Source: Escherichia coli
GTDB lineage: Bacteria > Pseudomonadota > Gammaproteobacteria > Enterobacterales > Enterobacteriaceae
DNA: 64,000 bases
Reading direction: 5' to 3' (one strand)
Assembly: GCF_016026235.1 (NCBI RefSeq)
Contig: NZ_CP065613.1
Position 1 is the first letter of the stretch. Each line of letters opens with the position of its first letter. Shown piece by piece: positions 2 through 11,301 of the stretch. The position numbers and the translations under genes were made by a program. The notes beneath the pieces were generated by a model. That model had not been told where the DNA came from, did no database searches, and saw only the letters and a program-made list of their open reading frames with translations.

Positions 2-916
2 ATGAATCAAACTGTCGCGGTGACGGGCGCTACCGGTTTTATCGGTAAATATATTATCGATAACCTGCTCGCCCGCGGCTTTCACGTTCGCGCATTGACG
101 CGTACTGCCCGCGCTCACGTCAATGACAATCTCACCTGGGTGCGCGGTTCGCTGGAAGATACTCATTCACTTAGCGAACTGGTTGCCGGAGCCAGTGCGG
201 TGGTCCATTGCGCTGGGCAAGTGCGCGGACACAAAGAAGAGATTTTTACCCACTGTAACGTTGACGGCAGCCTGCACCTGATGCAAGCGGCAAAAGAGAG
301 CGGCTTTTGCCAACGTTTTCTGTTTATCTCTTCGCTGGCGGCGCGCCATCCCGAGCTCTCCTGGTACGCAAATTCCAAACACGTCGCCGAACAACGGCTG
401 ACTGCAATGGCTGACGAAATTACGCTGGGCGTTTTTCGCCCGACAGCCGTGTATGGTCCCGGCGATAAAGAGTTAAAACCGCTGTTTGACTGGATGCTGC
501 GCGGCCTGCTGCCACGACTTGGTGCACCAGATACACAGCTCTCTTTCCTGCACGTCACCGATTTTGCGCAAGCAGTGGGTCAGTGGTTAAGCGCCGAAAC
601 TGTACAGACGCAAACCTATGAATTATGCGATGGCGTCGCTGGCGGCTATGACTGGCAACGCATACAGCAACTTGCCGCCAACGTCCGTTGCGGTTCCGTG
701 CGAATGGTTGGTATTCCTCTGCCGGTACTCACCTGCCTTGCGGATATCAGTACCGCGTTGAGTCGCCTGGCAGGTAAAGAACCTATGCTGACCCGCTCGA
801 AAATTCGTGAATTAACCCACGCCGACTGGTCGGCAAGTAATAACCGTATTTCTGAAGATATTAATTGGTTTCCCGGGATTAGCCTGGAACACGCATTACG
901 CAACGGGCTATTTTGA
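2..916 (+). CDS. NAD(P)-dependent epimerase/dehydratase-family (extended SDR) reductase
   Basis: 304-aa ORF; N-terminal Rossmann motif VTGATGFIGK; YANSK (YxxxK) catalytic motif; start codon at 2-4. Confidence 0.8.
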   Translation: MNQTVAVTGATGFIGKYIIDNLLARGFHVRALTRTARAHVNDNLTWVRGSLEDTHSLSELVAGASAVVHCAGQVRGHKEEIFTHCNVDGSLHLMQAAKESGFCQRFLFISSLAARHPELSWYANSKHVAEQRLTAMADEITLGVFRPTAVYGPGDKELKPLFDWMLRGLLPRLGAPDTQLSFLHVTDFAQAVGQWLSAETVQTQTYELCDGVAGGYDWQRIQQLAANVRCGSVRMVGIPLPVLTCLADISTALSRLAGKEPMLTRSKIRELTHADWSASNNRISEDINWFPGISLEHALRNGLF

Positions 917-947: not shown

Positions 948-1196
948 ATGGTAAATCGTGAAATAGTAATGGATTACATCCTTTCCTGTTTACAGGATTT
1001 GGTCGAAAACGGTGTGGAAATTAAGCCCGACAGCGATCTCGTCAACGATCTTGGCCTGGAGTCGATCAAAGTGATGGATCTCTTAATGATGCTGGAAGAC
1101 AGATTCGATATTTCCATTCCTATTAATATTCTGCTGGATGTCAAAACCCCTGCGCAATTAATGGAAACTCTACTTCCATGGCTGGAGAATAAATAA
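948..1196 (+). CDS. acyl carrier protein-like small acidic protein
   Basis: 82-aa ORF; DLGLESI motif resembling the ACP phosphopantetheine attachment site (DSL); stop overlaps start of next gene. Confidence 0.65.
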   Translation: MVNREIVMDYILSCLQDLVENGVEIKPDSDLVNDLGLESIKVMDLLMMLEDRFDISIPINILLDVKTPAQLMETLLPWLENK

Positions 1197-2368
1197 TGGG
1201 GCTATACGATAAATATGCGCGCCTTGCTGGCGAGCGACTGCAATTTAGTGACAACGGGTTAACACCGTTTGGCACCTGTATTGATGAAGTGTATTCCGCC
1301 ACCGAAGGCCGGATCGGCAATAAAAAAGTGATTCTGGCCGGGACCAATAATTATCTCGGTTTAACCTTTAATCATGATGCCATCAGCGAAGGTCAGGCAG
1401 CGTTAGCGGCCCAAGGCACCGGCACCACCGGTTCTCGTATGGCAAACGGCAGTTATGCGCCGCACCTGGCGTTAGAGAAAGAGATTGCCGAGTTTTTCAA
1501 TCGCCCTACCGCTATCGTTTTTTCAACCGGTTATACCGCTAATTTAGGCGTCATCAGCGCACTTGCCGACCATAACGCCGTGGTGTTACTGGATGCCGAC
1601 AGCCACGCCAGTATTTATGACGCCTGTTCTCTCGGTGGCGCGGAAATTATTCGTTTCCGCCATAACGATGCTAAAGATCTGGAACGGCGCATGGTTCGCC
1701 TCGGTGAACGGGCGAAAGAGGCGATTATCATCGTTGAGGGCATCTACAGCATGCTCGGTGACGTTGCGCCGCTGGCGGAAATTGTTGATATCAAACGTCG
1801 TCTCGGTGGTTATTTGATTGTCGATGAAGCGCATTCGTTTGGCGTGTTAGGCGCAACAGGGCGCGGACTGGCTGAAGCTGTCGGCGTTGAAGATGATGTG
1901 GATATTATCGTTGGTACTTTCAGTAAAAGTCTGGCCTCGATTGGCGGTTTTGCTGTCGGTTCGGAAGCGATGGAAGTGCTGCGCTACGGCAGCCGCCCGT
2001 ATATTTTTACCGCCTCTCCTTCTCCGTCCTGCATTGCGACCGTGCGCTCGTCGTTAAGAACTATTGCCACACAACCAGAGCTGCGGCAAAAGCTGATGGA
2101 TAACGCCAACCATCTGTATGACGGTCTGCAAAAACTGGGTTATGAGTTAAGTTCACATATTAGCCCGGTAGTGCCAGTAATAATCGGTTCGAAAGAGGAA
2201 GGTTTACGCATCTGGCGCGAGCTTATCTCGCTGGGCGTGTATGTGAATCTTATCCTGCCGCCTGCCGCGCCTGCAGGCATCACGCTGCTGCGCTGTAGCG
2301 TAAATGCTGCCCACAGTCGTGAGCAAATCGATGCCATCATTCAGGCATTTGCTACTCTGAAGCAGTAA
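1196..2368 (+). CDS. PLP-dependent alpha-oxoamine synthase family acyltransferase (BioF/Kbl/serine-palmitoyltransferase-like)
   Basis: 390-aa ORF; conserved VDEAHSFG and GTFSKSL (PLP-binding Lys) motifs typical of class-II aminotransferase alpha-oxoamine synthases. Confidence 0.85.
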   Translation: MGLYDKYARLAGERLQFSDNGLTPFGTCIDEVYSATEGRIGNKKVILAGTNNYLGLTFNHDAISEGQAALAAQGTGTTGSRMANGSYAPHLALEKEIAEFFNRPTAIVFSTGYTANLGVISALADHNAVVLLDADSHASIYDACSLGGAEIIRFRHNDAKDLERRMVRLGERAKEAIIIVEGIYSMLGDVAPLAEIVDIKRRLGGYLIVDEAHSFGVLGATGRGLAEAVGVEDDVDIIVGTFSKSLASIGGFAVGSEAMEVLRYGSRPYIFTASPSPSCIATVRSSLRTIATQPELRQKLMDNANHLYDGLQKLGYELSSHISPVVPVIIGSKEEGLRIWRELISLGVYVNLILPPAAPAGITLLRCSVNAAHSREQIDAIIQAFATLKQ

Positions 2369-2373
2369 TGTGA

Positions 2374-2401
2374 GCCCGCCGTGGTGTTTGCGCCACGGCG
2401 G
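2374..2401. terminator. bidirectional stem-loop between convergent operons
   Basis: inverted repeat cccgccgtgg / ccacggcggg with 8-nt loop, followed by ttt. Confidence 0.5.
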
Positions 2402-2403
2402 GT

Positions 2404-3483
2404 TTAATGTTGTCTGTCATACCAATACACCAGGCTCAACGCCACCAACACAAACGCTACCGGTAAACCGAGCGCGGTAACAGGTGCGCTTAACGCAAAT
2501 AGCAATCCCAGATTAACCATGATTTGATAGCTGATCCAGGTGAGTAAGCCCACGATGACGCCTACAGCGAGACGGCTACCCATCCCAGGCGAACGCGGGG
2601 CAGTAAAGGTAAACGGCACAGCCAGCAAAATCATCGCCAGGGTCAGGATGGGTTGCCCCAGTTTTTCCCACAGTGCAAGGCGGTATTCGCTGCTGGGTTG
2701 CCCGGTTTCCTGCAAATAATGGATGTAATGATTAAGCTGACGGACAGAAAAAGTATTCCCCGGCATTGATAACTCTTCAAGATTCATACTGGTGAAGGCC
2801 GATTGCCAGGCAAGATTATCTAATGTTTCCAGCGTTTCTTTGCCATTCAGCCATTTTTTATGATTCACACCATGCAGGACCCACGTTTTGTCGTCTTTAA
2901 TGGTGGCACTGCGTGCATAAATGTAGGATTCAAGCGAGAGATCGTCGGGATAATGAAATATCTCCACGCCCACCGGCTGGCCCTGCTCGTTCAGCGATTT
3001 CACCGTCACAAATTCATTACCACGCCTGGCCCACAGCATATTGCCGGTAATGTCATCGTCCTCCCCCAACGCGGTGGCGGTCGATTTGATTTGCAGCGCC
3101 TGTTGCTGCAATGGCGACGCCACCCACTCATCTATCGCGCCTAACGAAACAGTCCACAATATCCCGGCAACCAGCGCCACCAGTGCAATACGGAAGATAG
3201 AAAACCCCGTGCTGCGAATGGCGGTAAGCTCACTGTTTTTCGATAACTGCCCCAGGCCAACAATCCCTCCCAATAAGGCGATAAACGGCGAAAGTTCGAC
3301 CAGTGTGCGCGGTAAGGTCATTAGCACCACCAGCACCGCCTGAGTCCAGCGATAACCGCCCGGGCTGACATCATCCAGTTCGTTAATCAGGTTGAAGGTG
3401 GTAAAAAGCGGCAGCAATAGCCCTGCGGCGGCGGCAAAACCGAGAAAGAGATGACGGATTAAATAGCGACTGAAAACATTCAT
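2404..3483 (-). CDS. LptG-like (YjgP/YjgQ family) permease paralog
   Basis: ORF 2404-3564; likely start at internal Met (MNVFSRYLIRHLF) giving a 4-bp overlap with the upstream gene; multi-TM protein with C-terminal similarity to LptG. Confidence 0.7.
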   Translation of the reverse strand: MNVFSRYLIRHLFLGFAAAAGLLLPLFTTFNLINELDDVSPGGYRWTQAVLVVLMTLPRTLVELSPFIALLGGIVGLGQLSKNSELTAIRSTGFSIFRIALVALVAGILWTVSLGAIDEWVASPLQQQALQIKSTATALGEDDDITGNMLWARRGNEFVTVKSLNEQGQPVGVEIFHYPDDLSLESYIYARSATIKDDKTWVLHGVNHKKWLNGKETLETLDNLAWQSAFTSMNLEELSMPGNTFSVRQLNHYIHYLQETGQPSSEYRLALWEKLGQPILTLAMILLAVPFTFTAPRSPGMGSRLAVGVIVGLLTWISYQIMVNLGLLFALSAPVTALGLPVAFVLVALSLVYWYDRQH

Positions 3484-4550
3484 CGGGAAAATTTCTGCAG
3501 CAAAGAGAAGTCGCGTGCGACCAGCATCAGCAGGCCCATTAGCATGAGTCCGGGTACTAACCACAAACCAGGAATGAGGGGAATCGCGCCGTTAGCCACC
3601 AGCGTACGGCAGACGTCGCCGCCATAAAAAATGGCAATAAACAGCAACGTCAGTGGCAATAATGTTGAAAATCGCCCTTGCCGCGGTTTTACCCGACTTA
3701 ATGAAATGGCCAGCAGCGCCATCAACAATGCTGTCAGGCCACGGCTTTGCCGCCATTGCAGTTCGGCATGATCGGCAGGAAATACAGAGCGTGCCAGCTC
3801 CGTGACCGATTTTGCTTTGCGTTTGACGTTAGGGCTTTGATCCAGCGGATTCAGATGTAATTGCAGATTACGGTAGATCTGTTCATTGTCGTCACGCCCC
3901 TGATGATCGAGAAGATAGGCAGTGCCGTTGTGCAACATAACGGTCGGTTTCTCGGGTGATGGGTCAACCACATCAACCGAACGGGCGCGGAAAATGCGGG
4001 TTCGATTGGCAGTAGAAGTATAAATCAGCGCGTCAGTCAGGCGATTATTATCCTGATCAACCGTCTGCGAAAGGATCATTCGTCCGTTATCGTTAGTGTT
4101 AAATTTCTTTGCCCGCAACTGGCGAACATCCAGCTCCGACTGCGACTGCTGCTCCAGTTGATAAATCTGCGCATAAGCCCACGGACGACCATACATCGAC
4201 AGAAGGGTGACAAAAATACTTAGCGGTATCGCCAGATAAAGAACGGCTTTGTACAAGCGTCCCGGACTGCCCCCCGCCGCAGAGATAGCGGTAATTTCCG
4301 AGTCGGTATACATCTGCCCTAGCGTCACGCCAACTGACACATACAGACCAACAGGTAACAACATCTCCAGTGCAATCAGCACTTTGTAGAAAACGATATC
4401 CAGCACAACATCAAGAGCTAATGTCCCATTTGCCGCTTCGGTCAGATAACGCTGTGCGGAGTAGCTGGCGAAAATAAAGATCAGAAAACCGACGATAATC
4501 AGCACCAGACGGCGCGTACCACGCATGATGTAGTGTTCAACCAGCTTCAT
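3480..4550 (-). CDS. LptF-like (YjgP/YjgQ family) permease paralog
   Basis: 356-aa ORF; motif LGQMYTDSEITAISAAG resembling the conserved LptF/LptG segment; multi-TM. Confidence 0.7.
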   Translation of the reverse strand: MKLVEHYIMRGTRRLVLIIVGFLIFIFASYSAQRYLTEAANGTLALDVVLDIVFYKVLIALEMLLPVGLYVSVGVTLGQMYTDSEITAISAAGGSPGRLYKAVLYLAIPLSIFVTLLSMYGRPWAYAQIYQLEQQSQSELDVRQLRAKKFNTNDNGRMILSQTVDQDNNRLTDALIYTSTANRTRIFRARSVDVVDPSPEKPTVMLHNGTAYLLDHQGRDDNEQIYRNLQLHLNPLDQSPNVKRKAKSVTELARSVFPADHAELQWRQSRGLTALLMALLAISLSRVKPRQGRFSTLLPLTLLFIAIFYGGDVCRTLVANGAIPLIPGLWLVPGLMLMGLLMLVARDFSLLQKFSR

Positions 4551-4580: not shown

Positions 4581-5144
4581 TTATTCATTGATCAGTTTCT
4601 GCGCCAGCGCAATGACATGATCTACCTCTTCCGGCGTCAGGCTGCCGTCCTTTGCCCACTGAATTTGCCCGGTTTTATTCAGCACCAGAATGGTTGAACT
4701 CTGCTCCGGCAAGCGCCAGGCAACGCGTCCCTGTCCATTGCCGTCAATAACGAATTGCGCCCACGGATAGCGGCGTTTATTTTTTTCGATTTTGCCAACG
4801 ACAAAATAGCCAGTACCAAAGATGGCATCATCAGTGTTCACAATGGTGGTGGGCTGAAAACGATCCTGTGGAAAGTTTGCCGCTTCAACCGCTTTAATTA
4901 ACAGTGAGTTCTTCTTCTTCGCTGACTTACGCCCGGCGATATACTGGATAATGCGGACTTTTCCCGCCAATTGTGTGCTGTTCCACTTTTGGTAGTGAAT
5001 TTCGTCGTCGCTATTCAGAAGCAGCTCGCCGCCTTCCTGAATATAAACAGGGGTAACCGTTTTGCCAGTGACGAAATTGTGTGCCTGCACACCCGGGGCT
5101 AAGAGCATGATAATCAGCGCAATAATCAAACGAGATGACATCAT
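4581..5144 (-). CDS. secreted/periplasmic protein of unknown function
   Basis: 187-aa ORF with an N-terminal signal-peptide-like segment (LIIALIIMLLAPGVQA). Confidence 0.5.
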   Translation of the reverse strand: MMSSRLIIALIIMLLAPGVQAHNFVTGKTVTPVYIQEGGELLLNSDDEIHYQKWNSTQLAGKVRIIQYIAGRKSAKKKNSLLIKAVEAANFPQDRFQPTTIVNTDDAIFGTGYFVVGKIEKNKRRYPWAQFVIDGNGQGRVAWRLPEQSSTILVLNKTGQIQWAKDGSLTPEEVDHVIALAQKLINE

Positions 5145-5152
5145 TGCTCCGG

Positions 5153-5977
5153 TTATAGCGGAAAACGCGAAATCAGCAGCTCTAAGCGCTGGCGAATATC
5201 GCTATCCAGCGCCACCGGTGCATCATACGACTGGCGGTTTTCCATATCATCCGCCACCATGTCGTCGTGTTTATCCCCCATCAGGCCATTAATGGCGGCG
5301 AGGAAACGGGAAATCTGTAACGCCTCTTTATTTTCAGGATCAAGCGATCTTAAGGTGTCGTAATAAGAAACCTGCTGGCTGATGATTTTTCGCACATCAT
5401 GAAATTCCCTGCCGGTTAGTCGCGGTTTGGCAATTATCTCTTTCAGGGCATGCATTTGCTTTTGCCGATAGGCAATAAAACCGCTTACGCTTTCTAACTG
5501 GCTATGGCGTAATGAATAGTTCACCAACGACCAGACCGGAGAGCTTAAATAAATTCGTAACAGGTTGCCGTAATACGACACAATATTTTTCTTACCGTTA
5601 CGAAATCCGTCCTGAAAACGTCCCAGAAAAACGGTCGTTTTGCCGAATAAAAATCTGGCCTGATGCTTTTTTAAATACAGCCGTTGTGCAAAACGTAGAT
5701 GCTTGTAGCGCGCTCGCATGTATTTAAACTGTTTACGCTCGTCTGTCGTCAGCTCATCGCCTTTGGCTTGTTTGCGAATTAAACGAAGTAATTCCTGACG
5801 ATCAACGCCATTGAGCCAGAATTGCAGGCATAACGCGTAATTATCATGGATGATTTCGGTGGTACAACATAGTGCGATAGTCGGCGGCAAACTGACCTGG
5901 GCATCAACAACATCATCTTCCTCAATCGCAACAAATAGATGCTCGCTCGCCTCAAGCGGGAAATATTTTCTCATCAT
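5153..5977 (-). CDS. hypothetical protein (possible counterpart of the K-12 yghO pseudogene)
   Basis: 274-aa ORF, in operon orientation with flanking genes; no motif recognised. Confidence 0.45.
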   Translation of the reverse strand: MMRKYFPLEASEHLFVAIEEDDVVDAQVSLPPTIALCCTTEIIHDNYALCLQFWLNGVDRQELLRLIRKQAKGDELTTDERKQFKYMRARYKHLRFAQRLYLKKHQARFLFGKTTVFLGRFQDGFRNGKKNIVSYYGNLLRIYLSSPVWSLVNYSLRHSQLESVSGFIAYRQKQMHALKEIIAKPRLTGREFHDVRKIISQQVSYYDTLRSLDPENKEALQISRFLAAINGLMGDKHDDMVADDMENRQSYDAPVALDSDIRQRLELLISRFPL

Positions 5978-7326
5978 CAGGATTTCTCTCCGGCTGCGTT
6001 ATAAAGCAAGGAATGGCGCTGAAAAAAAGCCTTTAAGATCGGAATTAGCGAAAGCACCACATCCAGACATTGACCGCCGAAATAAGCAAACGCTGCTCCC
6101 AGCACGCCAAACAGATGACAGAACATGAACAGCAATACGATGTAGCCGATTGAGGCGATGGTTTGCGCCACGAGAAAAGCGCGCTGTTTTCCCGCCATCA
6201 ATAGCAATGACTCCTGAGGGAAGCCCAGCATCGAGATCACAATTGCGCCCAGCATCACCTGAATCAGGTCATACGCTTCGAGATACTTAACGCCAAACAC
6301 CAGCGAAATGAGCGGCTTGCCGACGATCAACACCGCGAGCGCCACCAGAATACCGATTCCGCCCGCCAGTAAACCGGACTTCACACCTAACAACCACGGT
6401 CTGGTGGTGCGCGGATCTAAACGCATCACCTCTGGGTAAAAACTTTTACCCAGCAAACCCGCTGGCGTTCCGGCGGCGTCGAAGAATGTCATGGCGATTT
6501 TAAATAACCCGGCGACAGCGGGTCCTAACACGATCCCCACCAACACTGTGCTGCACGAGTTACGCGCCGACCAGATGGAGTGGGCAATGTTGGTTGACCA
6601 GACAAAACTCCACGCGCCTTTAATGTGTCGGGCAGACTCAAACAGATTCAATTTGAAGGCGTTATGGATATTTCTGCGGCGTAATTCGCGCGCGGCAAAC
6701 CACCAGTACATGGTGCCGCCAACCAGATTCGACACGTACCAGGCAATAACAAAACCCGCAAAACCAAAGTCAAAATACCAGGCTGCGACGCTCCCCGCTG
6801 CGCGCAGAAAAGGTTTCGTCGCCTGCTGTACAGCAATCAAATCAAAGCGATCTACCGCACGCAGAATGCCGGTCGGCGTGGAGGAAGCCATTGAAGGAAT
6901 GAGCGTGCAATACAGCGCTGCCAGCCAAAAGCTTTGGTCATCCAGACCTAATGAATGGGAAAGAAAAGGGAGTAAGGCAATGCCGCCGACAATCGCCACC
7001 GCGCCGCTGACGATATCCAGCGAGAAGGAAAATGAGACGACATTGCGAAATTGCTGCGGATTATTGTTGGTTAATGCTGGTGTTCCGTACTGAACCACCA
7101 GCTGCCATGTCTGAAACTTAATAAAATCGCTGATCGACTTGGCGTACGATTGCACAATCACCAGTACGCCAAACATGGCGGGCGTCATCCCTTTACCGGC
7201 ACACGAGAGCGCCAACAGACCCAGCAAGGCGCTCACGACATTACTGGAGCCTAACCAGGCGCTATTGCGAATAATGGTGCGAAACGCGCCATCTGCAAAC
7301 CAATGTTTGATGTTAAAACCCGCCAA
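5977..7326 (-). CDS. yghQ: polytopic inner-membrane protein, flippase-like (polysaccharide-biosynthesis/MOP type)
   Basis: 449-aa highly hydrophobic ORF; position immediately before yghR as in K-12. Confidence 0.6.
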   Translation of the reverse strand: MAGFNIKHWFADGAFRTIIRNSAWLGSSNVVSALLGLLALSCAGKGMTPAMFGVLVIVQSYAKSISDFIKFQTWQLVVQYGTPALTNNNPQQFRNVVSFSFSLDIVSGAVAIVGGIALLPFLSHSLGLDDQSFWLAALYCTLIPSMASSTPTGILRAVDRFDLIAVQQATKPFLRAAGSVAAWYFDFGFAGFVIAWYVSNLVGGTMYWWFAARELRRRNIHNAFKLNLFESARHIKGAWSFVWSTNIAHSIWSARNSCSTVLVGIVLGPAVAGLFKIAMTFFDAAGTPAGLLGKSFYPEVMRLDPRTTRPWLLGVKSGLLAGGIGILVALAVLIVGKPLISLVFGVKYLEAYDLIQVMLGAIVISMLGFPQESLLLMAGKQRAFLVAQTIASIGYIVLLFMFCHLFGVLGAAFAYFGGQCLDVVLSLIPILKAFFQRHSLLYNAAGEKS

Positions 7327-7371: not shown

Positions 7372-8130
7372 TTAAGTTAAACTTCGGCGGTCAGAAACGA
7401 TGGCAACCAGAGAAACCGCCTTCTGTGCCTGTTCCAGCACTTCGCTGTAGGGCGCTCTGGAATCAATCTCAAGAATTTTTGTGCCGTTATAGCCAATCGT
7501 CGACATAACACTGATTTTGTCCTGCAGCTCGGCATAGTCATGGTCAGGCTTGCGGGAGATGGCAGTCTCAATATCAATGCCCAGGCGAATAATTAATTCC
7601 GGGCGATATTGCGCCATTTGTTGGTATAAACGCCGTTCGCGCTGCGCCAGAAACATGCTGATTTTCCCGGTCGCACGTTCGACGCCAATCCCCGGTCCGT
7701 CATAATAAAAGCCCGAAATTTCAGCCTGCGGGAAGCGATCGCTGACCACCAGAACGCCACTTTGCGCCAGTCGCTGAACCTTGCGTAGATTCGCCATTCT
7801 TCGCAGCGAGAAGCAGTACATAATCACCGCCGCCCATAGCGCCGGAGATTTGGTTTTCATGCTTTGGGTTTTCGAGGATTTGGCCGCCAGTCGCCGTTCC
7901 AGCCAGACGCCAACCAACGGCAATCGTTTGATTTTGTCGCCGTCTTCGCCGGAGAGCAGCCCCAAATAGCGGCGCTCGGTTTGCCAGTGTTGTTGCAGCG
8001 ATTTCACCAGGTCGGTGGTCAGTGTGGATTTACCGGTGCCATCACACCCGACCACCGCAATCAGCCCCGGAATGTAGTTGGGCTGCGGCGCGGTTGTACT
8101 AATAACAGTTTGTGTTTGTAGTGCATCCAT
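7372..8130 (-). CDS. yghR: P-loop ATP-binding protein
   Basis: 252-aa ORF; Walker A VVGCDGTGKST; paralog of the next two genes. Confidence 0.7.
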   Translation of the reverse strand: MDALQTQTVISTTAPQPNYIPGLIAVVGCDGTGKSTLTTDLVKSLQQHWQTERRYLGLLSGEDGDKIKRLPLVGVWLERRLAAKSSKTQSMKTKSPALWAAVIMYCFSLRRMANLRKVQRLAQSGVLVVSDRFPQAEISGFYYDGPGIGVERATGKISMFLAQRERRLYQQMAQYRPELIIRLGIDIETAISRKPDHDYAELQDKISVMSTIGYNGTKILEIDSRAPYSEVLEQAQKAVSLVAIVSDRRSLT

Positions 8131-8161
8131 TCGTTAAATCATCCCCTATCCATTTTGGTGA

Positions 8162-8875
8162 TCAAGAAAGCGCGGCGTGAATTGCGCGTAGTGACGCTTG
8201 CAGAATTTCATCGGCTGGTTGCCGACCATCCAGTTCAAGGATCTTTGCGCCATTGAATGTCAATTGCGGCGTAACGGCGATTTTTTCCTGTAACGCTGCC
8301 AGTTGGTGGTCAGGTTTACGCGCAAACGCGGTTTGTTCATCAATGCCAAGACGAATCAACAATACGGGTAAATAAGACGCCATCCATTGGTACAGCTTCA
8401 ACTCGCGCTGCCTTAACATTTTTATCCAACCGTTACCGCCCGTGGTTTTTGCCAATTGCGGGCCATCAAAGCGAAAACCCGGCACTTCAACCTGCGGGTA
8501 GCGGTCGGTGATGAGCAGATGGCCTTGCTGGCTTCTACACAACATTTTGCGAAACTTGTACGCCCGCCAGCAGGAAAGCAGATAGATAACCAGCGCAGTA
8601 ATATTGCCAGGCGGTGTTGAGGGCTTTTCGTGCACATGTGCCGCTTTACTTCGCAGATAACGCCCAAAAGGTGCGCCAATAACAGGGAGCTGTGAAATCC
8701 ATTCGCCAATTCGCCCGGACGATTGCCCGAGATAAATGCGTTCTGTTGGCATTCTTGCTGCCAGTTCATTTACCAGGCTTGCCGTGAGGGTCGATTTACC
8801 TGAACCATCACATCCTACAATGGCAATAACACGCACTGGCGTGGAATTAATTATTGACATATTACGTTGATTCAC
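8162..8875 (-). CDS. yghS: P-loop ATP-binding protein
   Basis: 237-aa ORF; Walker A IVGCDGSGKST; shared DRYPQ and RKPDH motifs with yghR/yghT. Confidence 0.7.
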   Translation of the reverse strand: MNQRNMSIINSTPVRVIAIVGCDGSGKSTLTASLVNELAARMPTERIYLGQSSGRIGEWISQLPVIGAPFGRYLRSKAAHVHEKPSTPPGNITALVIYLLSCWRAYKFRKMLCRSQQGHLLITDRYPQVEVPGFRFDGPQLAKTTGGNGWIKMLRQRELKLYQWMASYLPVLLIRLGIDEQTAFARKPDHQLAALQEKIAVTPQLTFNGAKILELDGRQPADEILQASLRAIHAALS

Positions 8876-9048
8876 GAAAAACCCGGCAGTAAATAATGTA
8901 TTGAATATTACGTGGTCCGTGCTCAGAATATCCGTTCAACCTTATTGTGACAATGGTTAATTGTGACATTGACCTGAATTACGCTTTCATAAAAACATAT
9001 TAACCAAATAAATATTTTGGATGGATATTTAAATTTAAGGATATATTC

Positions 9049-9741
9049 ATGCAGTCAATAACACCTCCATTAATTGCCGTTATTGGTAGCGATGGTTCAG
9101 GCAAGTCAACGGTGTGTGAACATCTCATTACCGTTGTCGAAAAATATGGTGCTGCCGAAAGAGTTCATTTAGGAAAACAAGCCGGAAATGTCGGTCGTGC
9201 AGTGACAAAATTACCGTTGATGGGAAAATCCTTACATAAAACAATTGAACGAAATCAGGTGAAAACAGCAAAAAAATTGCCAGGACCAGTTCCGGCGCTG
9301 GTAATTACAGCGTTTGTCGCCCGTCGCTTACTGCGCTTTCGTCATATGCTTGCCTGTCGTCGTCGCGGGTTAATTGTTCTAACCGACCGTTATCCTCAGG
9401 ACCAAATTCCTGGCGCTTACGATGGTACGGTGTTCCCACCTAACGTTGAAGGTGGTCGTTTTGTCTCATGGCTGGCAAGCCAGGAACGTAAAGCGTTTCA
9501 CTGGATGGCGAGCCATAAGCCTGATCTGGTCATCAAACTCAATGTCGATCTAGACGTGGCCTGCGCGCGTAAGCCTGACCACAAAAGGGAATCGCTGGCA
9601 AGAAAGATAGCCATAACGCCACAGTTAACCTTTGGTGGTGCACAACTGGTTGATATCGACGCCAATCAGCCACTGGAACAGGTGTTAGTTGATGCAGAAA
9701 AAGCGATTACGGATTTTATGACCGCGCGTGGTTATCACTAG
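9049..9741 (+). CDS. yghT: P-loop ATP-binding protein
   Basis: 230-aa ORF; Walker [12 protein letters not shown]; divergent from yghS. Confidence 0.7.
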
Positions 9742-9789: not shown

Positions 9790-11301
9790 TTAAATCAACT
9801 GCAATGCTATCCAGTACAGCCCACCAGAAAGAAAAATCGCCGCCGGTAAAGTAAATACCCACGCCATCAGGATGCTGGTTACCGTTTTACGCTGTAACCC
9901 ACCGCCGTCCACCACCATCGTCCCTGCAACTGCAGACGAGAGGACGTGTGTTGTGGAGACGGGCATCCCAATATAACTGGCAAGACCGATAGACACTGCC
10001 GCCGTCATTTGTGCCGCCATGCCTTGCGCATACGTCATGCCGCGCTTACCAATCTTCTCACCGATGGTCATCGCTACACGACGCCAGCCAATCATGGTGC
10101 CAATGCCGAGCGCCAGTGCTACCGCCATGATGATCCACACCGGAGCGTACTCAATGGTGCTTAACATATCGCTGCGAAGTTTTTTCAGCAGGTTCTGGTC
10201 TTCTTTACTGACGCCTGGCGGTTTCGCCAGCTTCGCGGAGGTATCAGAGATGCACAGCATAATGCACAGCATAATGCGGCGCAGCTGGCTGCGCTGACTC
10301 ACGCTTAACGGCTCGTAACTTTCCATATTGCCTGGCAGCATCGTTTTAACGCGCGCAATCGCATCAAAGGTATTTGCCGGATGACAGTGAAACTCCGTCA
10401 CTTGCGCGCCATCAGTAGATGCCGCAGGCAATGGAGGTTCCATCGTAATCAACTTCTGCGGCAGTTCAGGATGCTGTTGCAGGTAGTGTTCGAAGTTGGT
10501 GACGGCATCGCGGGTACGGGTAATTTCATAGCCGGACGCGTTCATATTGACGACGAAGCCAGCAGGGGCAATCCCCACCAATACCAGCATCACCAGGCCG
10601 ATCCCTTTCTGCCCGTCGTTAGCGCCGTGCGAAAACGCCACGCCCGCAGCGGAAACAATCAGCGCAATACGCGTCCAGAATGGCGGCTTACGTTTGCCTT
10701 TTTTCTTTTTGCGATCTTCCGGAATGCGGTGAATACGGTCACGCTTTTTCGTTCCGCTCCAGTAGCGTCGCAGCAGGAATATCAGGCCTCCCGCAATGAC
10801 CAGGCCGACGATAGGGGAAACAATCAGCGAGGAGAAAATTTTGGTCACTTCACGCAGGTTTAACGCATCCATCACCGATGAGCCGGTTAACAGCGCGTTG
10901 GTTAAACCGATGCCGATAATCGCACCAATCAAGGTGTGCGAACTGGAGGCCGGTAAACCAAAGAACCACGTTCCCAGGTTCCAGATAATCGCCGCCAGCA
11001 GCATGGAAAAGACCATCGCCAGACCGTGAGTTGACCCCATATTCAGCAGCAAATCGGTTGGTAACATATGGACAATGGCATAGGCAACGCTAAGTCCGCC
11101 CAATAACACGCCAAAAAAGTTAAAAAATGCCGCCATCACCACAGCAAGTTGTGGTTGCATGGCACGAGTATAAATAACGGTTGCCACCGCATTCGCCGTA
11201 TCATGAAAACCATTGATTGCTTCGTAGAACAACACAAATGCCAGAGCAAGTAATAACAAAAGCCCTGTGTATATATCAAGGCCAACAAATAAATTTAGCA
11301 T
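9790..11301 (-). CDS. pitB: low-affinity inorganic phosphate transporter
   Basis: 503-aa ORF with PiT-family sequence; adjacent to gss as in K-12; contains a 12-bp in-frame tandem duplication. Confidence 0.85.
10251..10274. repeat. 12-bp perfect tandem duplication (tgcacagcataa x2) inside pitB
   Basis: direct reading of sequence; encodes IMLCIMLC on the minus strand. Confidence 0.9.

Follow-up and report, generated by a model that had tools for sequence, protein, structure and literature searches.

Two described systems bear on the function of yghR, yghS and yghT, three neighboring genes of Escherichia coli that encode paralogous P-loop proteins and lie beside a locus for sphingolipid synthesis. 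The first is PPK3, a heteromeric polyphosphate kinase that pairs a catalytic with a regulatory subunit, each with a basic cleft in the place of the thymidylate (dTMP) site; the corresponding Sulfolobus operon carries ppx, sixA and a CHAD gene together with two "thymidylate kinase" paralogs, Saci_2019/Saci_2020 (PMC12995831). CHAD domains are themselves specific binders of polyphosphate (PMC6537752). The second is the sphingolipid pathway of Caulobacter, in which the ceramide kinase CpgB is DAGK-like and has a GGDG motif (PMC10331486), and in which sphingolipid export depends on LptF2/G2, paralogs encoded at the sphingolipid locus that act together with the housekeeping LptB (bioRxiv 10.64898/2026.04.12.717747). 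In E. coli BL21, Spt (serine palmitoyltransferase), AcpR and AasR have been characterized biochemically, and yghO and epi have been given roles in dihydroceramide synthesis (PMC9386255). Also already known are the genes yghR, yghS and yghT and their paralogy, and the E. coli ceramide locus itself. Here the three genes are considered in a stretch of 64,000 nucleotides of an E. coli chromosome (NCBI RefSeq assembly GCF_016026235.1, contig NZ_CP065613.1), called the window below, to which all coordinates given without a locus name refer and which spans the glc-ygh-pitB-gss-hyb region. The sequence comparisons described here lead us to propose, with about even probability, that YghS, YghR and YghT are phosphotransferases of the sphingolipid head-group pathway.

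The three open reading frames (ORFs) lie where the initial annotation of the window had placed them and on the strands it had given, with yghR and yghS in tandem on the minus strand, separated by a 31-nt gap, and yghT divergent across a spacer of 173 bp (Table 1). The same genes are annotated by RefSeq in a 99.8%-identical E. coli chromosome (FDAARGOS_943). That the three are clear paralogs, as the initial annotation held, is confirmed by pairwise identities of 45, 37 and 34% over ~218 aligned residues and by blastp E-values of 8e-63 (YghR-YghS), 4e-53 (YghS-YghT) and 2e-46 (YghR-YghT). The alignment places the motifs GxDGxGKST and RKPDH in all three proteins, again as claimed, but DRYPQ, likewise claimed for all three, is found in YghS and YghT and reads DRFPQ in YghR. 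The genes are under purifying selection, the ratio of nonsynonymous to synonymous substitution rates (codon-wise alignments, against other Escherichia lineages) being 0.04-0.13 for yghRST and 0.04-0.07 for yghR alone. All three proteins are likely to be active, because across 75 YghR, 81 YghS and 73 YghT orthologs the conservation of the P-loop, DR[YF]PQ, RKPDH and E158 is 90% or higher; the arginine of the DRx motif likewise reaches at least 90% in each of the three orthologous groups. On the acceptor side, segments with a net charge of +8 (YghS), +11 (YghR) and +15 (YghT), in proteins with isoelectric points of 9.6-9.9, would suit an anionic acceptor.

The kinase-like nature that the initial annotation had supposed is borne out by structure prediction and profile comparison, which give a thymidylate-kinase-type fold. 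The YghS model that AlphaFold2 builds from 53 aligned sequences is confident (pLDDT, or predicted local distance difference test, 89.6), and its best structural matches in Foldseek are thymidylate kinases (dTMPKs), with TM-scores of 0.55/0.66; a homolog of the catalytic PPK3 subunit, cPPK3 (PDB 4nzy/2plr/5h70), is among the top matches. Searched against the PDB, the 53-sequence profile finds canonical thymidylate kinases (TMPKs) at an E-value of 2.5e-11 and the cPPK3 homolog 2plr at 2.5e-5, the latter over the P-loop region only; this deeper profile was needed, as one made from the three paralogs gave marginal TMPK matches (E ~3e-3). With hhalign, the family profile aligns over its full length with the thymidylate kinase (TMK) of Staphylococcus aureus at 97.5% probability, and in this alignment the P-loop, the clamp arginine of DRY and the LID arginine within RKPDH fall into register. 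The dTMPK-type P-loop with its aspartate, the DR[Y/H]-type motif and the LID arginine are present in all three proteins. What differs is the acceptor side. The REPGG loop of dTMP kinases is replaced by YLGxxSG, the helix that contacts base and phosphate is replaced by a hydrophobic and basic helix, and a basic helical insertion of ~40 residues separates strand 2 from the DRY motif. In established TMPK structures, the arginine of the REPGG loop and the residues of the contact helix serve in dTMP binding.

Measured against curated models, the three proteins score 32.4 (YghR), 22.1 (YghS) and 24.6 bits (YghT) with the NCBIfam dTMP kinase model TIGR00041, which has a cut-off of 83.25, and 27.1, 16.2 and 20.1 bits, respectively, with Pfam PF02223, YghR barely reaching the cut-off of 27. 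Their other Pfam and NCBIfam matches are generic and lie over the P-loop. Because the scores fall below the cut-offs and the dTMP contacts are not conserved, YghRST are members of the dTMP kinase superfamily but not dTMP kinases, an identity that was considered and rejected on both grounds. They form a sizeable family of their own, as judged from a profile search of 1.84 billion representative proteins that returned 2162 relatives at E-values up to 1e-3 and 140 at up to 1e-30. RefSeq gives yghS and yghT the product name "dTMP kinase", which on this sequence comparison is probably an over-annotation, and names yghR variously a "hypothetical", "ATP-binding" or "nucleoside/nucleotide kinase family" protein. 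Several other identities were rejected. Homology to a CpgB-type ceramide kinase fails in that CpgB is DAGK-like, whereas YghRST have the P-loop nucleoside monophosphate kinase fold and no DAGK_cat match. An ABC or AAA ATPase is contradicted by Pfam matches that cover essentially the P-loop region and remain below their cut-offs; ABC_tran reaches 15.5-17.8 bits there, against a cut-off of 25, and the ABC signature is missing. The PADLOC matches that might indicate an anti-phage defense system are weak and mostly over the P-loop.

A comparative scan with one genome per species yielded 80 loci, from Enterobacterales, Rhodanobacteraceae, Halioglobus, several betaproteobacterial groups, Sphingobium, Novosphingobium, Acetobacter and Myxococcales. 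An Spt homolog, taken as a protein with at least 45% identity to E. coli Spt encoded no more than 10 kb from yghS, occurs in 54 of the 80 loci (43 of the 56 with full flanks) and in Gamma-, Beta- and Alphaproteobacteria; the genomic link between the trio and spt is conserved. The "lipid-like cluster" noted next to the trio in the initial annotation is the published E. coli ceramide locus together with the LptF2/G2 exporters, and the view that the two act in the same pathway, in line with the shared substrate suggested there, gains support from this co-occurrence across species. Homologs of YghS with 65-75% identity are found in Carnimonas and throughout Enterobacterales. The divergent yghT together with yghS and yghR lies directly beside aasR-cerR-acpR-spt in both Serratia marcescens and Carnimonas, and the divergent yghT next to yghS is kept there as well as in most of the 80 loci. 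The genes yghS and yghR are adjacent in every locus that carries both, yghT is nearby in most, and yghQ, which encodes a MOP-family flippase-like protein, co-occurs with the trio and always adjoins yghR in Enterobacterales. Gene order varies with lineage. Rhodanobacter has a single co-directional array of yghS, yghR, an LpxO-like hydroxylase gene, aasR, cerR, (acpR), spt, yghQ and the CHAD gene, and a Rhodocyclaceae metagenome-assembled genome (L087) has CHAD-yghS-yghR beside yghQ-spt-cerR-aasR. In Sphingobium the trio lies on one strand in the order yghS, yghR, yghT, and is followed on that strand by ORFs in the positions of the yghQ and CHAD matches. Sphingobium is a known sphingolipid producer, and in published sphingomonad genomes these genes lie scattered. 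Orthology is 1:1:1, and since orthologs are 55-73% identical and paralogs 33-45%, the triplication must be old and each copy has been kept. In two Candidatus Nitrotoga species YghS and YghR are fused into one protein of 496 aa (L057 9866-11356; L063), with the P-loop, DRxPQ and RKP motifs intact in both halves, and this natural fusion is evidence that YghS and YghR may physically work together.

A second frequent partner is the unannotated ORF of 274 codons downstream of yghQ. The AlphaFold2 model of its product is all-helical (pLDDT 93.8), and fold comparison identifies the two-bundle all-helical architecture of CHAD. It was only through fold comparison that the domain came to light: a profile search of the PDB with this family returned nothing even at E-values up to 10. 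Eight of 25 homologs match Pfam CHAD at an E-value of 1 or less, the best at 1.1e-5, and the Serratia homolog reaches 18.6 bits against a cut-off of 25.6. The residues R60, R88, K92, H93, R95, H105, H193, R196, K197 and H237 are invariant in the family, a basic set that is consistent with polyphosphate binding. Homologs of this ORF are present in 55 of the 80 loci, and in L087 one lies directly upstream of yghS-yghR. The ORF had also been considered as a stand-alone form of the N-terminal nucleotidyltransferase-like domain found in ~500-aa fusion relatives of YghRST; it bore no resemblance to that domain by eye and proved to be CHAD.

Taken with the same even balance of probability, YghRST, the CHAD-like protein and YghQ would together make up a conserved cytoplasmic head-group module within the sphingolipid locus of Proteobacteria. 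In the scheme that follows, we infer what serves as substrate and what is formed from it, that the three proteins assemble into a heteromer, and in which order the steps take place. Ceramide made by YghO, AasR, AcpR, Spt and CerR would first be phosphorylated by a DgkA-type lipid kinase, for which the cluster itself has a gene in roughly one locus in four and which the housekeeping dgkA supplies in E. coli. E. coli DgkA phosphorylates ceramide in vitro. YghS, YghR and YghT, probably as a hetero-oligomer, would then extend the phosphate head group with more phosphoryl groups, drawn from ATP or polyphosphate, yielding a strongly anionic ceramide di-, oligo- or polyphosphate with phosphoanhydride bonds. 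The phosphate chain would be held by the CHAD-like protein, the product would be flipped by YghQ, and LptB-LptF2/G2 would extract it toward the outer membrane. To our knowledge, the characterized enzymes of the dTMPK superfamily (dTMPK, PPK2 and PPK3) transfer phosphate onto a phosphate acceptor. A search of the E. coli locus by RefSeq annotation and Pfam found no CpgA-D-type gene, glycosyltransferase or other candidate for a head-group enzyme. A phosphoanhydride head group is suggested because the superfamily uses phosphate acceptors, because the module usually includes CHAD, and because no glycosyltransferase or Cpg-type enzyme is encoded. As the specific product, however, a ceramide oligophosphate is a tentative suggestion that we consider rather unlikely. 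Similarly doubtful is the full form of the proposal, in which a ceramide-anchored oligo- or polyphosphate, built by a heteromer of YghS, YghR and YghT and exported to the cell surface, would be present in most E. coli strains and many Proteobacteria.

Several observations weigh against this assignment. No spt homolog lies within 10 kb in 26 of the 80 loci, and the Nitrotoga loci with the yghS-yghR fusion have housekeeping genes around them and no spt nearby. K-12 keeps yghRST intact although its ceramide genes are deleted (see below). The 274-aa protein of E. coli itself has no Pfam match, CHAD included. The YghRST profile is closer to canonical dTMP kinases than to the PPK3-type structure, and the DRx arginine is kept in all three proteins, unlike in the inactive regulatory PPK3 subunit. 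Since the deoxynucleoside kinases, which are related, act on hydroxyls, the acceptor need not be a phosphate. In the literature searched, no structure of an E. coli sphingolipid was found. Finally, members of the wider family may have other substrates, either lipid-linked ones or glycans. Many distant relatives are proteins of ~500 aa in which an N-terminal nucleotidyltransferase-like domain, with the motif TDLDLLV...HLHLHY, precedes a C-terminal YghRST-like domain (P0163, P0169, P0173, P0187). In P0223 (978 aa) a MOP flippase, a nucleotidyltransferase-like domain and a kinase-like domain are fused, and in P0257 (669 aa) a GT4 glycosyltransferase is joined to the kinase-like domain. The one glycan cluster examined, that of P0169 (L006), is of Wzx/Wzy type with sulfation genes and encodes a MOP flippase, a GT4 glycosyltransferase and Wzy, and no CHAD gene was called in this single cluster. 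The recurrent partner across the family is the MOP flippase, which handles lipid-linked substrates on the cytoplasmic side of the membrane. Small P-loop proteins encoded 3' of the distant fusion relatives (L006, L008) were checked and are not homologs of YghRST.

The catalytic chemistry could also be of another kind. If the three proteins were lipid kinases directed at hydroxyls, each might phosphorylate a different one (the C1-OH of ceramide, its C3-OH, or the hydroxy-acyl chain or sphingoid base); they would then take the place of CpgB and give ceramide mono- or bis-phosphates that contain no phosphoanhydride. Both the division of labor and the resulting product are somewhat improbable in our assessment, since dTMP kinases, which use a phosphate acceptor, are the closest matches both by structure and by profile, the motif is of the DRY type rather than the ERS of deoxynucleoside kinases, the conserved CHAD partner would be left unexplained, and many clusters already contain a DgkA-like lipid kinase.

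A different possibility retains the phosphate acceptor and removes the lipid. The proteins would be a PPK3-like polyphosphate kinase, or a polyphosphate-dependent nucleotide kinase, acting on free cytoplasmic polyphosphate, and the link to sphingolipids would be regulatory or energetic, for example through local supply of ATP or phosphate. The resemblance of the gene set to the PPK3 operon (dTMPK-like paralogs plus CHAD), a cPPK3 homolog as the top Foldseek match of the YghS model, the basic acceptor-side segments and the presence of pitB next to yghT in E. coli all speak for such a function. It is nevertheless decidedly unlikely: neither ppx, sixA nor pst genes are annotated in the E. coli, Serratia and Carnimonas loci, the adjacency to pitB is specific to E. 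coli, the YghRST sequences are nearer to canonical dTMP kinases than to the PPK3-type structure, and the genes are coupled in tight operons to a flippase and Lpt-type lipid exporters. In addition, E. coli already has PPK1.

YghRST might instead be non-catalytic or regulatory ATPases that bind to and gate either YghQ, the MOP flippase, or LptF2/G2, the exporter, so that ATP binding or hydrolysis would govern transport and no substrate would be modified. The invariable adjacency of yghR and yghQ in Enterobacterales and the fusion of distant relatives to a MOP flippase (P0223) or a GT4 glycosyltransferase (P0257) would fit such a role, as would the fact that the locus is without a dedicated ATPase for LptF2/G2. 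Caulobacter LptF2/G2, however, use the housekeeping LptB, and MOP transporters are not driven by ATP. Conservation of the full set of phosphotransferase motifs, including the DRx clamp and the LID arginine, would be needless for a simple switch, and the sub-threshold ABC_tran matches over the P-loop come with no ABC signature, all of which makes gating ATPases highly unlikely. That the trio are genuine extra dTMP or nucleotide kinases supplying nucleotides is hardly credible despite the RefSeq names of yghS and yghT and the dTMPK-type fold and motifs, given scores of at most 32 bits against an equivalog cut-off of 83, two of three proteins that miss the Pfam gathering score, unconserved contacts to the phosphate and base of dTMP, the ~40-residue basic-helix insertion, the essential tmk gene elsewhere in E. 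coli, and a linkage to spt that has no nucleotide logic. The head-group phosphotransferase assignment is the one carried forward here.

Features of the locus are collected in Table 1. Just upstream of the window, yghO (bCerS/aca) and aasR are annotated by RefSeq in the near-identical chromosome. Within it, yghS, yghR, yghQ, the CHAD-like ORF, the YtfJ-like gene, lptF2 and lptG2 form a seven-gene operon, with gaps of at most 45 nt, that converges on spt and ends at a strong hairpin, which from its sequence is likely to be a bidirectional terminator. For lptG2, a mechanical ORF call with a GTG start at 3564 gives an 85-nt overlap with lptF2; the RefSeq start overlaps the lptF2 stop by 4 nt and is judged the more plausible. 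The YtfJ-like gene lies between the CHAD gene and lptF2 and is conserved in the enterobacterial loci, and its product, to judge from its sequence, could be a periplasmic component of sphingolipid export.

Table 1. Genes and other features of the yghRST region in the window, in order of position.
Feature	Position	Strand	Description
cerR/epi	2-916	+	NAD-dependent epimerase-family ceramide reductase (Pfam Epimerase, RefSeq)
acpR	948-1196	+	Specialized acyl carrier protein for Spt (RefSeq)
spt	1196-2368	+	Serine palmitoyltransferase (RefSeq "spt"; BL21 enzyme assayed in PMC9386255)
Hairpin, 16 bp, strong	2371-2406		Between convergent spt and lptG2; pattern match only
lptG2	2404-3483	-	LptG paralog, last gene of operon; RefSeq start 3483
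lptF2	3480-4550	-	LptF paralog (RefSeq); putative sphingolipid-export permease by analogy with Caulobacter
YtfJ_HI0045-family ORF	4581-5144	-	Pfam PF09695, E 2e-59; N-terminal signal-peptide-like sequence
Unannotated 274-aa ORF	5153-5977	-	Divergent CHAD domain (polyphosphate-binding-type fold)
yghQ	5977-7326	-	MOP-family (Polysacc_synt) flippase-like membrane protein; PF01943, E 3e-11; directly downstream of yghR
yghR	7372-8130	-	252 aa; dTMPK-superfamily P-loop phosphotransferase paralog (putative); GCDGTGKST, DRFPQ, RKPDH
yghS	8162-8875	-	237 aa; paralog, leads the seven-gene minus-strand operon; GCDGSGKST, DRYPQ, RKPDH
yghS/yghT divergent control region	8876-9048		Sigma-70-like site 8953-8925, minus strand; consensus scan only
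yghT	9049-9741	+	230 aa; third paralog, divergent; GSDGSGKST, DRYPQ, RKPDH

Several further genes recur beside the trio in other species. A gene for a small lipid kinase of the DgkA type (DAGK_prokar) is present in 20 of the 80 loci, often right after yghR, and a gene for an LpxO-like Asp/Arg (Fe/2OG) hydroxylase, also in 20 of the 80, lies beside yghR in many; examples of such neighbors are L003 2279-2644 and L005 12404-12730 and 11596-12339. The former are candidates for the first phosphorylation of ceramide and the latter for acyl hydroxylation. In the Rhodocyclaceae genome, a PAP2-superfamily lipid-phosphate phosphatase/phosphotransferase gene (L087 7126-7815) stands beside the yghT ortholog, and a DUF2147 gene follows yghR there. 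The DgkA-like, LpxO-like and PAP2 neighbors fit the theme of a phosphorylated lipid. In E. coli, yghT is adjoined by the phosphate transporter gene pitB (9790-11301, minus strand), an adjacency specific to E. coli when compared with Serratia and Carnimonas. Within pitB, positions 10250-10277 hold a perfect 12-bp tandem duplication, ATGCACAGCATA, in 2.3 copies, which adds an IMLC repeat (IMLC-IMLC). PitB is 503 aa long here and 499 aa in the otherwise 99.8%-identical reference, and the duplication accounts for the 12-nt difference in length.

The yghRST locus is variably present within E. coli. Among 5426 complete genomes, 4604 contain at least 80% of the 2,370-bp segment, 4073 (~75%) match the first 12 kb of the window over 80% or more of its length, and ~680 have no match to the segment; in at least one more genome (NZ_CP155555.1), only its last ~170 bp are left, next to gspL. 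In the K-12-type strain OV2, an IS5 element (L002 4875-5855) replaces everything upstream of position ~6258 of the window, so that K-12 has lost aasR, cerR, acpR, spt, lptG2, lptF2, the YtfJ-like gene, the CHAD gene and the 3' part of yghQ. Regulation has been sampled in K-12, where yghS rises 3.1-fold upon overexpression of SlyA and carries the flag "K, O" in an overlap column of the table consulted (PMC5797941). A site for FlhDC found by genomic SELEX in K-12 maps to the yghS-yghT spacer. We take the "K, O" flag to stand probably for H-NS data sets. The regulatory data suggest that the locus is silenced under standard laboratory conditions, and silencing together with the K-12 deletion may explain why neither a phenotype nor a lipid has been reported. 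In a silkworm screen of K-12 transposon mutants, insertions in yghQ, yghR, yghS or yghT changed survival little or not at all (80-100%, against 0% for an mlaA mutant).

The genes yghR, yghS and yghT are long-standing members of the function-unknown set in the best-studied bacterium. The literature searched on these genes, on E. coli sphingolipids and on links between CHAD and sphingolipids yielded no functional study of the three. Nor did it yield a description of the module made up of the trio, CHAD and the flippase, of how tightly this module is associated with spt in three classes of Proteobacteria, of the CHAD identity of the 274-aa ORF, or of the parallel with PPK3. We rate YghRST as a distinct family of the dTMPK superfamily that appears to have been recruited to lipid head-group chemistry. 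Placement in the module makes the question of which sphingolipid E. coli and its relatives make, and how it is decorated, experimentally tractable, and the loss of the ceramide half of the locus in K-12, the standard laboratory strain, helps to explain why the function went unseen. In Caulobacter, anionic sphingolipids can substitute for lipid A and determine sensitivity to polymyxin and detergent. Were pathogenic E. coli, Serratia, Citrobacter and the plant-associated Erwinia and Pantoea to carry an anionic sphingolipid of a different kind, this would bear on the cell envelope, on susceptibility to antibiotics and on recognition by the host. Should the phosphoanhydride idea prove right, polyphosphate chemistry by thymidylate-kinase-like enzymes, newly described in the energy metabolism of archaea, would also reach the membrane lipids of bacteria; ceramide polyphosphate would be a new class of lipid, made by an equally new, lipid-primed kind of polyphosphate kinase.

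Set against the known families, YghRST differ from dTMPK (PF02223, TIGR00041) in occurring as three paralogs within a lipid-export operon and in their extra basic segment of ~40 residues. The CHAD-like ORF is very divergent in sequence from the described CHAD proteins (PF05235: CtCHAD of Chlorobium, RcCHAD of Ricinus, PptA of Streptomyces and YgiF of E. coli), and it lies in a lipid-export operon rather than beside polyphosphate kinases or phosphatases. With PPK3 the locus shares dTMPK-like paralogs encoded side by side, an accompanying CHAD gene, the loss of the dTMP site and a basic acceptor side; YghRST are three paralogs rather than two, each keeps the DRx arginine that the regulatory subunit rPPK3 has lost, and they are embedded in a locus for sphingolipid synthesis and export. 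PPK3 is treated here as a working analogy and not as a family assignment, because the DRx motif is kept, ppx and sixA are missing from the locus, and the profile is nearer to canonical TMPKs. With the Caulobacter ceramide diphosphoglycerate pathway (CpgA-D), the E. coli locus would have its overall plan in common, namely head-group enzymes, a flippase and LptF2/G2 encoded next to spt, acpR, cerR, aasR and bCerS, and an anionic sphingolipid of the outer membrane as the expected product. The enzymes themselves are unrelated: the Cpg set includes nucleotidyltransferases, whereas the E. coli type has dTMPK-like P-loop proteins and CHAD.

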